20,000 bases of DNA from an uncultured virus (IMG/VR IMGVR_UViG_3300026097_000002) (lineage: Duplodnaviria > Heunggongvirae > Uroviricota > Caudoviricetes > Crassvirales). The translations under genes were made by a program, and so were the position numbers. Below, in pieces: positions 84-7,589 of the stretch (position 1 is its first letter; the number at the start of each line of letters is the position of its first letter). Under the pieces are notes generated by a model, which saw only the letters and a list, made by a program, of their open reading frames with translations, did no database searches and was not told where the DNA came from. Location of the stretch: the IMG/VR virus record IMGVR_UViG_3300026097_000002; one strand, given 5' to 3'.

Positions 84-379
84 AGGTTCTCTAGCTTTTT
101 AGTTAGGGCGTTTGTTATGTACTTAGACCCACCGAAGTCTCTGATCTGCCTGAGGTACTTGTCCCTCTTGTAGGCCTTCACCCCCTCATCGAAGCCCTGC
201 TCCAAGAAGATCGTGACGATGTCGTTACCTACCTTGACGTAGAAGTCACTCTCGGTGGACAGCATATGGAACCCGTCCTCGTCCTTCACCATCTTCAACC
301 CCTGATACAGTCGCGCCTCGTAGTCTCTTGTACTTAGATCCGCTCCGCGCTCTACAAATTCATTCCAGATGTGTTCCAT
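80..379 (-). CDS. hypothetical protein, 99 aa
   Basis: ORF in the co-oriented cluster, just downstream of a TATATTTG box (389-396). Confidence 0.8.
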   Translation of the reverse strand: MEHIWNEFVERGADLSTRDYEARLYQGLKMVKDEDGFHMLSTESDFYVKVGNDIVTIFLEQGFDEGVKAYKRDKYLRQIRDFGGSKYITNALTKKLENL

Positions 380-388
380 TTCTTTTCA

Positions 389-396
389 CAAATATA
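389..396 (-). promoter_or_regulatory. Bacteroidota-type -7 promoter element (TAnnTTTG)
   Basis: TATATTTG on the minus strand, 9 nt before the ATG at 379. Confidence 0.6.
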
Positions 397-411
397 TGTT
401 TATAAACCATT

Positions 412-606
412 CTAAACAAGCTTTCTCTTAAAAAAGTTTGTCTTCCTGCTTAAATTATTTTTTATCACGAACAGGTCGTAAGCCTTGGCCGCGTCCTTAG
501 GGTCGTCGTAGTACCCAAGCTGAACCGTCTCGTTGTTGTACTTGATCCTAGCTATCCACTTCTTCTGCCCCCTCGATACCCCAAGGTATGGTGTCGTTTT
601 TCTCAT
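412..606 (-). CDS. stand-alone AP2/ERF-domain DNA-binding protein
   Basis: YLGVS...KKWIARIK...LGYYDDPKDAAKAYD matches the AP2 domain signature; no HNH domain attached. Confidence 0.8.
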   Translation of the reverse strand: MRKTTPYLGVSRGQKKWIARIKYNNETVQLGYYDDPKDAAKAYDLFVIKNNLSRKTNFFKRKLV

Positions 607-3439: not shown

Positions 3440-3711
3440 TTGAATTGCTCGTAATAATGGTTAATACTATCGTAGGCGATCTCGTCGCCGGTCTGCTCGT
3501 CGAAGGCGAAGACCTGTATCTGCTCCTCGTCCGTGCGCCCCTCGAATAGGGCTAGGCTTATGCCGTCGTACACCACGTACACGTAGCCGCTCCACTCGTT
3601 GTAGCCCACCTCCTCGATAGACTCTCTATCTACTATGTGGTGTCTGCTGTACAGGTACTCTAGCAGTGCGTTCAGCGAACGTACCTGCCTTAGGTTTCTT
3701 AGGTCAATCAT
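3436..3711 (-). CDS. hypothetical protein, 91 aa
   Basis: ORF with ATGA overlaps at both ends. Confidence 0.75.
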   Translation of the reverse strand: MIDLRNLRQVRSLNALLEYLYSRHHIVDRESIEEVGYNEWSGYVYVVYDGISLALFEGRTDEEQIQVFAFDEQTGDEIAYDSINHYYEQFK

Positions 3712-4025
3712 GGCTCAATAAAGTAGTCTTGGTTAAACGTAAACTTCTGCCCTCTGTAGTTAGGGTTAAATACTAAGCGGCCCTTGCCGTCGCGCTTAAG
3801 CGCTATCGCTTCCTGCGTCGTCTGCTCGCACAGCGTCTGTAGCTGTACGCGGGTCAAGCGCTCGTTCTCGTACACTAGCACTAGCGTAGGCTCAACGTCG
3901 CCCTTGTACTCGCCATCGATAAGGCTCCGCTTGACGGGAGCCCTACCCACTAGCTTGTTCAGGGTCTGCGTTATCTCTTCTGTGGTCTTGGGGTTGTTGT
4001 TCAGCCCGATATTTAGTGTTGTCAT
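3708..4025 (-). CDS. candidate S-adenosylmethionine lyase (T3 SAMase-like)
   Basis: GEYKGDVEPTLVL...LCEQTTQEAIAL...GRLVF parallels T3 SAMase GCY...EKTVRV...LACNEWEQDCVLV...GLVY (recalled from memory); size and early position fit. Confidence 0.5.
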   Translation of the reverse strand: MTTLNIGLNNNPKTTEEITQTLNKLVGRAPVKRSLIDGEYKGDVEPTLVLVYENERLTRVQLQTLCEQTTQEAIALKRDGKGRLVFNPNYRGQKFTFNQDYFIEP

Positions 4026-4252
4026 ATGTGGTTCATTGGTCTAAAGTCCATTGCTCGTACATCGTTGATGTAGCGCTTGCTCAGCACCTTTGATATCACT
4101 TGCACCACGTAGAACATATCTCTTGGCGCGTTCTCAGGTCTGTTGTCCCAAACGTTTCTAGCTTCTCTTAGTGAGCTCTCTAGCCTCTCAGTGCTAACGC
4201 CCTCACAGGCTCTTCTAAAATCCTTTGCAGGTGTTCCAAAAATTGTAATCAT
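4022..4252 (-). CDS. hypothetical protein, 76 aa
   Basis: ORF track 4022..4315; start moved to ATG 4252 (MITIFG) because the extension runs through the hammerhead. Confidence 0.7.
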   Translation of the reverse strand: MITIFGTPAKDFRRACEGVSTERLESSLREARNVWDNRPENAPRDMFYVVQVISKVLSKRYINDVRAMDFRPMNHI

Positions 4253-4266
4253 TGCTTTTGAGTTAT

Positions 4267-4335
4267 GGTTAAGACGCGCAAGCGAATTCGCTTCGCTCAT
4301 ACGCGTTTCGTCCAATAAGGACTCATCAGTTAACC
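4267..4335 (-). ncRNA. type I hammerhead ribozyme
   Basis: Minus strand: GGTTAA-CTGATGA-GTCC TTATT GGAC-GAA-ACGCGT...GCGCGT-C-TTAACC. Complete catalytic core, stems I/II/III and GUC cleavage triplet. Confidence 0.92.
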
Positions 4336-4602
4336 TTTGCTTGACCGGCCGTTATTGTAGATAGACCAATAAACTTCTTGTATCTGAGACTCGGTGTCGA
4401 TTGACTTCATGGTGAAAATGTCCTGCTCGTGCACCTTCTTGGTGCCCCACCTGTTCTCTAGGTAGGTGCTAATCTCGCCGTGCTCGTACATGCTCACCCA
4501 TTTATGCTTTAGGTCTACATCAAAGGTGTACTTGTGTACCTTGCCTTCGGCTAGCTTAAGTTCTTCAGCGATTAGGTTCAGTAGGTCATAGATAGTTTTC
4601 AT
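4330..4602 (-). CDS. hypothetical protein, 90 aa; first gene of the leftward operon
   Basis: ORF; its TAA stop lies within hammerhead stem I. Confidence 0.8.
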   Translation of the reverse strand: MKTIYDLLNLIAEELKLAEGKVHKYTFDVDLKHKWVSMYEHGEISTYLENRWGTKKVHEQDIFTMKSIDTESQIQEVYWSIYNNGRSSKG

Positions 4603-4624
4603 AGTGTGTAGTGTTAATGGTTAG

Positions 4625-4682
4625 TCCCTATGCAAGGTTTCGCTCCTTGGCCACTTAGTGGTAAGCCCGTCGGCACATAGGG
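4625..4682 (-). ncRNA. 58-nt tRNA-like cloverleaf (not a translational tRNA)
   Basis: CCCTATG-T-GCC GACG GGC-TTA-CCAC TAA GTGG-C-CAAGG AGCGAAA CCTTG-CATAGGG-A: 7-bp acceptor-like stem, 5-bp stem with 7-nt T-like loop, shrunken D and anticodon arms. Confidence 0.65.
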
Positions 4683-4696
4683 TTAGGTATCCGAAC

Positions 4697-4799
4697 CTGA
4701 TTCGCCGCGTACTAAGGTCACCCACTTGTTTGTTCGCATATGTTGCGGCCGCATCTTCGTACGGCACTAGTGGTCATCCCTAGGCTAGCAGTAAATCAG
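4697..4799 (-). ncRNA. structured leader RNA domain
   Basis: Nested pairings CTGATTT.CTGC/GCGG.GAATCAG, CTAGGG/CCTTAG and CCACT/AGTGG close two hairpins (GCCGTA/TGCGGC, CGCA/TGCG). Confidence 0.55.
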
Positions 4800-4800
4800 T

Positions 4801-4812
4801 ATTTCAAAGAAC
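4801..4812 (-). promoter_or_regulatory. boxA-like antitermination motif
   Basis: GTTCTTTGAAAT about 30 nt downstream of the promoter; resembles rrn-leader boxA. Confidence 0.45.
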
Positions 4813-4843
4813 GTCCCGACATCATTGTTATCGTTTGACATTG

Positions 4844-4890
4844 CAATGATATGGCAGAATGTTAATACGTGTCAAGTTTTTTTTCAATTA
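4844..4890 (-). promoter_or_regulatory. strong host-polymerase promoter of the leftward operon
   Basis: TTGACA (4875-4870), 18-nt spacer, TATCAT(TG) (4851-4844), upstream A-tract. Confidence 0.7.
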
Positions 4891-4896
4891 TTTTTA

Positions 4897-4928
4897 AAAT
4901 CCCAGCGTTTATGCGGCCTGCGAGAGGT
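4897..4928 (+). repeat. 32-bp direct repeat of 5459-5490
   Basis: AAATCCCAGCGTTTATGCGGCCTGCGAGAGGT vs AAATCCCAGTGTTTATAGGGTCTACGAGAGGT, 27/32 identical. Confidence 0.8.
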
Positions 4929-5410
4929 AAATTTTTTTTTCGATGTTGGATGTTATCAACAAAATATAGGCTCAGCCCACGCTATCAGAGGGATAGGTAG
5001 CGATTTGGTGGGGGTAATGGCCGCGATACAGGCGTTTAATGGTTGACGTTATGGGGACGGGAGTTATTCCTCATCTCAAGGTACCTTGCAATGCAAAATA
5101 ATGCAGAACGAAAACGGTGCTTCATATGCATAAGTAGATTTAAGTAGGTATACACCAGCCACAAACAAAACCTGAAAAGTTTGACTTCATTACATATATA
5201 TAGGAGGGGGGTGGGTAAATAGAAACGACTTTCCTGTGGCGCGCGTGTACGTGAAATATATATATAACCCATTTTCTACATATATCTGATGGTCAAAATA
5301 CCCTTCCCTGATGGTCAGAATTCGATGTCGAAAATGATGTCGATTTTTTAGTTAGGGGTCAATTTAGGCTTGTCTGGAATAATTCTAAATAAGCGTTAGG
5401 GGTAAAATAG

Positions 5411-5746: not shown

Positions 5747-5754
5747 TATATTTG
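5747..5754 (+). promoter_or_regulatory. Bacteroidota-type -7 element for groEL
   Basis: TATATTTG 18 nt before ATG 5773. Confidence 0.6.
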
Positions 5755-5772
5755 CGCATCAAATTGAATCTA

Positions 5773-7335
5773 ATGATCGAAAAAGACATACACTATGACC
5801 GTGAGGCGCGAGAAAAACTGGCTTCAGGCATAAATAAGATCGCTGACGCTGTGAAAACAACCTTAGGCGCGGCGGGAAACACTGTAATCTTAGAAGACGA
5901 GCTAGGCAGGCCTCACATCACCAAGGACGGGGTAACTGTTGCTAGGTCTGTGAACCTATCTGACCCTGTTGAGCACCTAGGTGCCTCTATTATGCGTCAG
6001 GCTTCCATAAAGACGGCGGACGAGGCCGGTGACGGCACCACCACGTCGATGGTTATAGCCCAGTCTCTGGTTAAAAACGCCTTCGAGGCTATAGATTCGG
6101 AGCAGGGGATCAGTGTGAACCAGCTGAGAAGGGACCTAGAGGTGCTCTCTAAGGCTGTTATAGCGGACCTGGAGAAGGTGGCTATACCTGTGACGGACGA
6201 TATGCTGGACAACGTGGCTGCGATATCGGCTAACAACGACACGGAGCTAGGGAAGATCATCGCTAACGCCTACAAGGAGGTTGGTGTGGATGGTGCGGTG
6301 ACGATCGAGCAGTCGATGTCTATGGAGACCTACACGGAGATCGTTGAGGGTACACGTATCAAGAGGGGGTTCCACTCGCCCTATATGGTGACCGACAAGG
6401 AAAAGAACCAAGCTATACTGGAGCGTCCTCTGGTGATGGTATCGGACAAGACGGTGACCTCTATCGACGACATAGAGCCTATCCTGATGGTTGCGGTGCG
6501 CTCAAAGAGGCCACTGCTGATCGTAGCGGACGTAGACATCCCTGTGATGAACACGCTGAACGTGAACAAGGCCAAGGGGGTGATACAGGTGAACGTTGTG
6601 GCCCCGGAGGGGGTGGGTATGAACAGGTTCGAGCTTCTAGAAGACCTAGCGGTGATGACCAGCGCTGTTCTGATATCCGACGAGACGGGTAACGACTTCT
6701 CTGCGGTCGACGAGAGCTTCCTAGGTGAGGCCAAAAAGTCAGTAAGTACTGACAGAGAGACGGTTATAACGCTGGATGGCGAAAAAACCGCTAGCGCGGT
6801 TAAGGAAAGAGCGGATATGGTGAGGCAGCTTATCAAGAAGAACGAGGACAAGTACAACCTTTGGCACCACAAGGATAGGCTATCTAGACTGGCTGGAGGA
6901 GTTGCAGCGATATACGTAGGTGCGCTGACCGAGGTAGAGATGAAGGAGAAAAAAGACCGCGTAGAGGACGCCATACACGCCACAAGGGCTGCCCTATCTG
7001 AAGGAATAGTATCCGGCGGAGGGGTTGCGCTGTATAACATAGCTGACAGGGTAAGTAAGTCAGCAGCCGGTACAATCCTCTCAGAGGCTCTCAGAACTCC
7101 TGTAAGGCAGATTCTCACCAACGCTGGGGTAGACATACCATCGTTCGAACAAAAGGTCCTTAGATCGCGTAAAAAAGGCTACGGGTTAGATGTGAAGAGG
7201 ATGAAGTACGGGAACATGATCGATATGGGGATCATCGACCCGCTTAAGGTGACTAAAAACGCGGTGCTGAACTCAGTTTCGGTGGCGGTGACTATACTAA
7301 CTACGAACTGTGTCGTATCAAACAAGAGAGCATGA
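5773..7335 (+). CDS. groEL: phage chaperonin GroEL (Cpn60)
   Basis: AVKTTLG, ITKDGVTVAR, AGDGTTT, LAGGVA, EMKEKKDRVEDA, EGIVSGGG, GIIDPLKVT. ATG 5773 preferred over TTG 5752, which lies inside the promoter box. Confidence 0.97.
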   Translation: MIEKDIHYDREAREKLASGINKIADAVKTTLGAAGNTVILEDELGRPHITKDGVTVARSVNLSDPVEHLGASIMRQASIKTADEAGDGTTTSMVIAQSLVKNAFEAIDSEQGISVNQLRRDLEVLSKAVIADLEKVAIPVTDDMLDNVAAISANNDTELGKIIANAYKEVGVDGAVTIEQSMSMETYTEIVEGTRIKRGFHSPYMVTDKEKNQAILERPLVMVSDKTVTSIDDIEPILMVAVRSKRPLLIVADVDIPVMNTLNVNKAKGVIQVNVVAPEGVGMNRFELLEDLAVMTSAVLISDETGNDFSAVDESFLGEAKKSVSTDRETVITLDGEKTASAVKERADMVRQLIKKNEDKYNLWHHKDRLSRLAGGVAAIYVGALTEVEMKEKKDRVEDAIHATRAALSEGIVSGGGVALYNIADRVSKSAAGTILSEALRTPVRQILTNAGVDIPSFEQKVLRSRKKGYGLDVKRMKYGNMIDMGIIDPLKVTKNAVLNSVSVAVTILTTNCVVSNKRA

Positions 7336-7589
7336 AAGCAATAGGATCATATGTGGTGGTAGAGCCGCAGAAGGAAGAAGTAAAGACCAAGGGAGGGCTG
7401 ATACTGACCGAGGCGAACGAGATGAACCTCAGGTACAGGCTAGCTACCGTTGTGTCGGCTGGTGATGAGGTGAAGGACCTGTCTGACGGTGACGGTATCT
7501 ACTACGACAGCGCCGCTGGCTCTGAAATACGCATCGAGGGCAAGAAGTACGTGGTGGTCCACGAGCGGCAGGTAGTTGTGAAGATTTAG
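7332..7589 (+). CDS. groES: co-chaperonin GroES (Cpn10)
   Basis: EEVKTKGGLIL mobile loop, VVSAGD, IEGKKYVVV; ATGA-coupled to groEL. Confidence 0.92.
   Translation: MKAIGSYVVVEPQKEEVKTKGGLILTEANEMNLRYRLATVVSAGDEVKDLSDGDGIYYDSAAGSEIRIEGKKYVVVHERQVVVKI

Follow-up and report, generated by a model that had tools for sequence, protein, structure and literature searches.

The window, meaning the whole 20,000-nt stretch of phage DNA analysed here, encodes GroEL (5752-7335), GroES, an endolysin and tail-fibre genes on its plus strand, and about 18 small ORFs without an assigned family on its minus strand. Reading of the sequence located a complete type I hammerhead on the minus strand (4335-4267), between two of these small ORFs and in the same orientation as the ORFs flanking it, in a region where adjacent ORFs overlap or abut. 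According to the ORF list, the upstream ORF (P0001, 4330..4602, minus strand) encodes 90 aa, and the downstream ORF (P0002, 4022..4252, minus strand) encodes 76 aa from an ATG at 4252. P0001 could be assigned to no PHROG family and had a single Pfam match, which fell under the curated cut-off, while P0002 belonged to no PHROG or Pfam family. A consensus scan identified a sigma-70-like promoter, TTGACA-18-TATCAT (11/12), at 4846..4875 on the minus strand, approximately 0.5 kb upstream; judged by its sequence, this match is a possible start of the ribozyme-bearing transcript, with the qualification that the number of such sites makes this weak evidence, six being found against 4.2 ± 2.0 in shuffled sequences.

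Other features of the locus concern the host and the leaders of the small genes. The genes for GroEL (527 aa) and GroES (85 aa) extend over 5752-7589 on the plus strand, divergently from the small-gene operon, and even the closest phage records, those of Flavobacterium phages, share only about 40% identity with GroEL. No Shine-Dalgarno-like motif was found at the 37 predicted starts listed in the window, where leaders are A-rich; the missing motifs, set against a near-consensus sigma-70 promoter, hint at different host types. The sequence TTAACCA/TAACCAT lies 19-24 nt upstream of four consecutive minus-strand starts (3458-3464, 3730-3736, 4266-4272, and 4617-4623) and includes the 3' strand of stem I of the ribozyme. 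As a shared leader signal it was rejected, given that TTAACCA occurs 7 times window-wide against 3.4 ± 1.8 expected and that 10 of 200 shuffles reach 7.

Read 5' to 3' on the minus strand, the element begins with the 5' strand of stem I, GGUUAA (4330..4335), delimited by the sequence, the ORF list and the fold, which pairs over 6 bp (G4335-A4330 with U4272-C4267) with the 3' strand, UUAACC (4267..4272), the predicted 5' end of the downstream RNA. The core strand C3-U4-G5-A6-N7-G8-A9 is present as CUGAUGA (4329-4323) and is invariant in 16/16 family sequences. It is followed by stem II, a 4-bp GUCC/GGAC helix (4322-4319 with 4313-4310, within 4310..4322) with G10.1-C11.1 as closing pair, capped in sequence and fold by loop II, UUAUU (4318-4314), and then by the second core segment GAAA (4306..4309; G12, A13, A14, and A15.1). 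Stem III is extended, occupying 33 nt (4274..4306) in the fold: its outer part consists of six pairs, from A4306-U4274 to U4301-G4279, and its inner part of a 2-nt bulge and a 7-bp hairpin with a 5-nt loop, with a 14-nt palindrome within the stem. A4306 pairs with U4274, as the A15.1-U16.1 pair of the hammerhead demands, and the cleavage triplet GUC (G4275, U4274, C4273) fits N-U-H. Given this triplet and the hammerhead consensus position, self-cleavage would be expected between C17 (4273) and U1.1 (4272). The initial annotation, made from the sequence alone, had described a perfect core, a 6-bp stem I, a 4-bp stem II and an extended stem III, all of which are correct on the minus strand, coordinates included.

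Folding of a 91-nt stretch (4345-4255, minus strand) returned exactly the hammerhead both as minimum-energy and as centroid structure, with the topology of the class, stem I being open and stems II and III loop-closed. The fold reached -26.7 kcal/mol (z -3.35), a stability equalled by none of 200 shuffles. In a 241-nt context, the minimum-energy fold retained the three stems and the centroid dropped stem I, whose duplex is weak (-4.1 kcal/mol, against a family median of -4.2 kcal/mol among the matches listed) and has a G+C content of 38% versus 62% for stem III. The pattern CTGATGA-N8-38-GAAA occurs four times in the window versus 0.23 expected, and only the copy at 4335-4267 is accompanied by stems; the remaining three matches lie inside tail-fibre ORFs, with no hammerhead stems seen in the matched sequences.

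Related sequences were collected from IMG/VR. An exact scan, in which the core and stem II served as query, returned an identical phage contig (L003) and two unrelated contigs (L001 and L002) that share stem II and the loop UUAUU with the window copy and differ in stems I and III. A scan with a free loop retrieved at least 127 loci, which were parsed together with L001 and L002 after exclusion of the loci from the same phage (L003, L131, and L132). Parsing yielded at least 133 motif rows, at least 94 of them in type I arrangement, and at least 85 non-redundant copies including that of the window. Among the matches listed, stem I measures 6 bp in 63 of the 85 copies, that of the window included, the cleavage base is C in 77, loop II has five bases in 47 and four in 29, and the stem III segment spans 14-16 nt in most and at least 33 nt in 12.

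A covariance model, R1, was built from 16 equal-length hammerheads on other phage contigs, none of them from this phage; its structure string paired position 2.1, instead of 1.1, with C17, and the pair counts given here use the corrected pairing. Against R1 the window copy scored 64.4 bits (E 2.8e-18), a value inflated, like the pair counts, because the family set was gathered with the window's own core and stem II and the alignment was fitted to R1. In the alignment used for pair counts, comprising 92 matches from 82 sources among the matches listed, standard pairs fill 98.8% of pair cells and changes on both sides occur in 12 of 15 pairs. The covariation score is 0.645 versus 0.116 in shuffled alignments, with 0 of 500 reaching 0.645, and at most 0.063 with slid partners, again among the matches listed and with the caveat that kin sequences may exceed shuffles without any structure. 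Compensatory changes were found at the level of the family, stem II being fixed by the search pattern. Core, topology, fold and family covariation together bear out the designation of the element as a type I hammerhead, and the 69-nt element is, with high probability, a genuine self-cleaving hammerhead RNA.

Several arrangements within the collection are recorded here in their own right. A sub-family of at least 10 copies has an identical stem I, CUGUCU/AGACAG, and the loop GUAG in all but one; its members lie on different contigs (L005, L006, L022, L026, L032, L041, L066, L072, L094, L108, and others), and their 3' flanks are often alike. In L051, a hammerhead (278-346, minus strand) stands directly upstream of a tRNA gene (372-441, minus strand), the Rfam tRNA match lying about 25 nt from the ribozyme, and the 3' flanks of the hammerheads in L063 and L067 are tRNA-like by eye; a hammerhead placed before a tRNA might set the 5' side of the latter. 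Two contigs carry three hammerheads each, L001 at 1472-1541, 2207-2275, and 2782-2850, and L009 at 1-51, 385-455, and 621-694, spaced by approximately 170-570 nt, which is the clustered arrangement of Perreault 2011.

The Rfam hammerhead models, to which the initial annotation had pointed as a check, did not recover the element: with Rfam 15 at curated gathering thresholds, there were no matches across the window, the copy falling below the thresholds. In a permissive search the best match was the RAGATH-1-hammerhead (RF03152), with 24.6 bits versus a cut-off of 56.3, and in E-value mode the best match within clan CL00010 was a partial Hammerhead_3, with 20.9 bits versus a cut-off of 48.5. The same holds largely for its relatives, only three hammerheads passing RF00163 in 20 related loci, at about 36 bits versus a cut-off of 34. 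The window copy probably remains under the RF00163 threshold because of its 33-nt stem III. It shares the catalytic core and the GUC triplet with the RF00163 type I hammerheads of bacteria, prophages and phages (Perreault 2011, PMC3088659), as well as the open stem I, the hairpin-closed stems II and III, the intergenic site and the orientation of the flanking phage genes; it differs from them in being sub-threshold, solitary, and without an identified pseudoknot or other tertiary contact. RF03152 aligns over its full length (4268-4355, minus strand), with core, stem III and stem I matching, whereas the additional 5' hairpin of that model does not form here, where the region is coding and the pairs are non-standard, and stem II of the window copy is a regular 4-bp helix. 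Both the gathering score (24.6 versus 56.3 bits) and the extra 5' hairpin thus speak against membership of RF03152. The copy is a hammerhead by the features that define the class, though not a member by Rfam's own criterion, and the class of phage hammerheads lies at the edge of the curated RF00163 model.

Natural hammerheads normally need a contact between stem I and loop II for speed at cellular Mg2+. For the window copy, none was identified. A pseudoknot had been proposed between loop II and the AUAA that follows stem I; this tetranucleotide is present (4266-4263) and could form four A-U pairs with the loop, but across 84 copies among the matches listed the complementarity stays at the level of chance. 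When loop II was compared with the initial 12 nt of the 3' tail from the same copy, the longest run of Watson-Crick pairs averaged 2.405, against 2.433 ± 0.082 for re-paired loops and tails, and runs of four or more were present in 10 copies versus 8.5 expected (both among the matches listed). The two other UUAUU loops, in L001 and L002, have no AUAA tail, and contigs of relatives carry U4317>G, the differences listed, which are a part of the full set, including none at the proposed partner 4264. The 5' tail, tried as an alternative partner, performed no better than the 3' tail among the matches listed. The proposed pseudoknot is therefore rejected for lack of comparative support. Among the same matches, five-base loops have U at position 1 in 40/47 copies and A at position 3 in 43/47, and A is enriched beside stem I (40/62 copies at -1 and 35/62 at +1). 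The conserved U1 and A3 of loop II and the A next to stem I hint at a contact of non-Watson-Crick type. Pseudoknots are described in about 40% of hammerheads by Perreault 2011 (PMC3088659).

The stop codon of the upstream ORF (TAA, 4332-4330) constitutes the final three bases of the stem I 5' strand. The ribozyme is therefore indeed fused to a stop codon, as the initial annotation held, yet this is a habit of the family and nothing special to this copy. Upstream ORFs were called as the longest frame of at least 60 codons, a heuristic that leaves the counts of stop positions rough; among the matches listed, such an ORF was clear in 72 of 85 copies, five having too little flank and eight lacking a frame of this kind. 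In these 72, again among the matches listed, the stop overlaps the 5' strand of stem I in 20 and the core strand CUGAUGA in 11, precedes stem I by 1-13 nt in 15, lies farther upstream in 18, falls inside the ribozyme beyond the core in four, and is past the cleavage site in four. Counted from C3, the commonest positions are +1 (11 copies), -3 (9), -8 (8), and -9 (7), and the stop in the window, at -3, has its like in those nine copies (n = 72, among the matches listed). A TAA stands immediately 5' of the core in 33/85 copies, and serves as working stop in 9/27 of those with a clear ORF (among the matches listed). This pattern, in which a stop contained in the ribozyme is used or the stop abuts it, matches what the loss of spacers predicts, and hammerhead-free gene junctions in the same operon overlap too. 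The overlap with the stop codon is an ordinary habit of the class, probably reflecting spacer-free phage DNA and not a dedicated ribosome switch. A full-text literature search covering main articles returned no statement on stop-codon overlap of phage hammerheads, and the term "stop codon" is absent from the main text of Perreault 2011 (PMC3088659).

A terminating ribosome could nonetheless be imagined to gate the ribozyme, along the lines of the modulation of cleavage suggested in the initial annotation: ending at TAA 4332-4330, it would cover stem I and the core and keep the hammerhead unfolded, and the more the upstream ORF is translated, the less cleavage there would be. We regard this as unlikely, even though the stop of the window copy lies inside stem I and 46/72 copies among the matches listed have their stop in the ribozyme or adjoining it, so that a terminating ribosome, with a footprint of the size generally assumed, would often overlap the 5' half. 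Among the same matches, the stop is farther upstream in 18/72 copies and beyond the core or past the ribozyme in 8/72, and contact with the ribosome is therefore not required. Moreover, the preferred positions (+1, -3, -8, and -9) are the outcome expected from simple removal of spacers, the TAA preceding the core is the stop in only 9/27 ORF-bearing copies among the matches listed, and the adjoining junctions of the operon that lack a hammerhead overlap as well. Since tight packing accounts for the stop overlap, ribosome-gated cleavage is speculative. It is similarly doubtful that, in spacer-free phages, ribozyme folding is timed by the ribosome terminating at a stop within stem I or the core; were this true, each passage of a ribosome would melt the 5' half, the message would be cut only once upstream translation drops, and the decay and translation of downstream early genes would be tied to the translational state of the cell.

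By blastn, positions 3500-5200 matched nothing among phage records. Viral contigs, scanned with the proteins of both flanking ORFs as guides, yielded only the identical contig, and a protein-guided scan of metagenome contigs returned no orthologous locus; the ribozyme pattern, scanned over metagenome contigs, hit three loci whose flanking sequences are unrelated. G001, the record nearest to the window, shows 100% identity over the matching query bases (window 3700-5284) and hence adds no variation. Of the 19 sequencing runs listed for the stretch, none is an RNA run. Conservation at the exact site rests on contig fragments from four DNA runs, in which one joint steps back by 54 and differences within stem III are not resolvable into pairs. 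In one run (X10), the contig of a relative agrees with the upstream gene and with the ribozyme's 5' half (4307-4605), and a loose-end consensus from that run (0.78 agreement) has another stem III, followed by an unchanged UUAACC. In another (X3), the contig of a relative keeps both flanks and has 287 unrelated letters in place of 4278-4616, a swap that removes the upstream ORF and most of the ribozyme, one of its two junctions falling at the 3' edge of the latter. On an unrelated contig, L115, a homologue of the window ORF 3708-4025 (L115:10-276, 30% identity, E 3e-7) is located immediately upstream of a hammerhead that has a GGUUAA stem I, as in the window.

Such observations could be read as the traces of a portable boundary between modules, in the form of a cassette that travels among phage genes by movement or recombination, supplies its own stops in two frames (UAA, plus the UGA of the core), and cuts RNA only secondarily. 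One ribozyme design does recur between unrelated genes in many phage contigs, the X3 replacement of 4278-4616 ends at the 3' edge of the ribozyme, the homologue of ORF 3708-4025 adjoins a hammerhead in L115, and ribozyme-supplied stops are in use among the matches listed (20/72, with -3 in 9 and +1 in 11). However, phages in general have mosaic junctions where genes end, flanking repeats or mobility genes are absent, and the strict conservation of the catalytic core implies that catalysis is selected; as the primary explanation, mobility is very improbable, and it is compatible with the ribozyme acting as a separator of cistrons. Also very improbable is an inactive look-alike or decaying relic, with the motif present and no useful rate of cleavage: the missing tertiary contact, the sub-threshold Rfam scores and the unusually long stem III would agree with it, but all invariant core positions are intact, helix lengths are typical (stem I 6 bp, as in 63/85 copies among the matches listed), the score against the independent family model R1 is strong (64.4 bits), contigs of relatives match the core region though stem III differs, and a long stem III is present in 12/85 copies among the matches listed.

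The reading that we favour, at a probability of roughly 0.8, takes the element to be a self-cleaving ribozyme of the type I hammerhead class in a leftward operon, separating cistrons by cutting. Its most likely role would be to process an early polycistronic transcript by a cut between the two small genes that flank it. After transcription of the stem I 3' strand, the three-helix junction would fold and the RNA would be cut between C4273 and U4272. The upstream product would contain the entire 90-aa ORF with its stop and terminate, after stems II and III, in a 2',3'-cyclic phosphate, and the weak, A/U-rich 6-bp stem I would then release the downstream product. The latter would start with a 5'-OH, followed by 20 nt of unstructured leader up to the ATG at 4252. 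The length of this leader had been given correctly in the initial annotation, and the predicted segment (4253..4272, minus strand) is without a Shine-Dalgarno-like motif. In the family, an ORF start lies within 150 nt of the cut in 60/85 copies, at a median distance of 26.5 nt and at 40 nt or less in 43/60 (among the matches listed). As an outcome, the stability and translation of the genes on either side of the cut would be uncoupled, which amounts to a cistron separator. From the motif, the fold, the family membership (by model and covariation) and the gene context, all shown here, we infer cleavage in vivo, the fate of both products and the purpose of the cut.

A counterpart from synthetic biology is RiboJ, a synthetic ribozyme insulator of satellite-RNA origin with a hairpin placed after it. 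As with RiboJ, a hammerhead upstream of a coding sequence would remove 5' RNA and leave a short, defined 5'-OH leader, whereas the element in the window occurs naturally, shares bases with the end of the upstream gene and has no following hairpin. Among natural systems, Perreault 2011 (PMC3088659) describes hammerheads that flank genes in prophages, reports that such polycistronic RNAs are cleaved in vitro and in E. coli, and proposes their processing into gene-length mRNAs. Those hammerheads form clusters, in contrast to the single copy detected by R1 in the window and a 46-kb related record taken together, where neither R1 nor Rfam at gathering thresholds found a second hammerhead; the arrangement here is consequently not the clustered one tested experimentally in 2011. 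According to a 2026 paper (PMC13725137), DNA genomes of bacteria and phages are known to contain type I hammerheads whose helix III is longer. Phage hammerheads have been known since 2011, and the window copy adds one more, solitary and with a long stem III.

For the annotation of phage genomes, these results indicate that standard procedures overlook this class, Rfam thresholds having missed the window copy and found three hammerheads in 20 loci. The design of the class is regular: stem I has 6 bp and is rich in A/U, the stop codon lies at the ribozyme or within it, and the leader left by the cut measures 20-30 nt. This regularity fits a natural insulator between cistrons.
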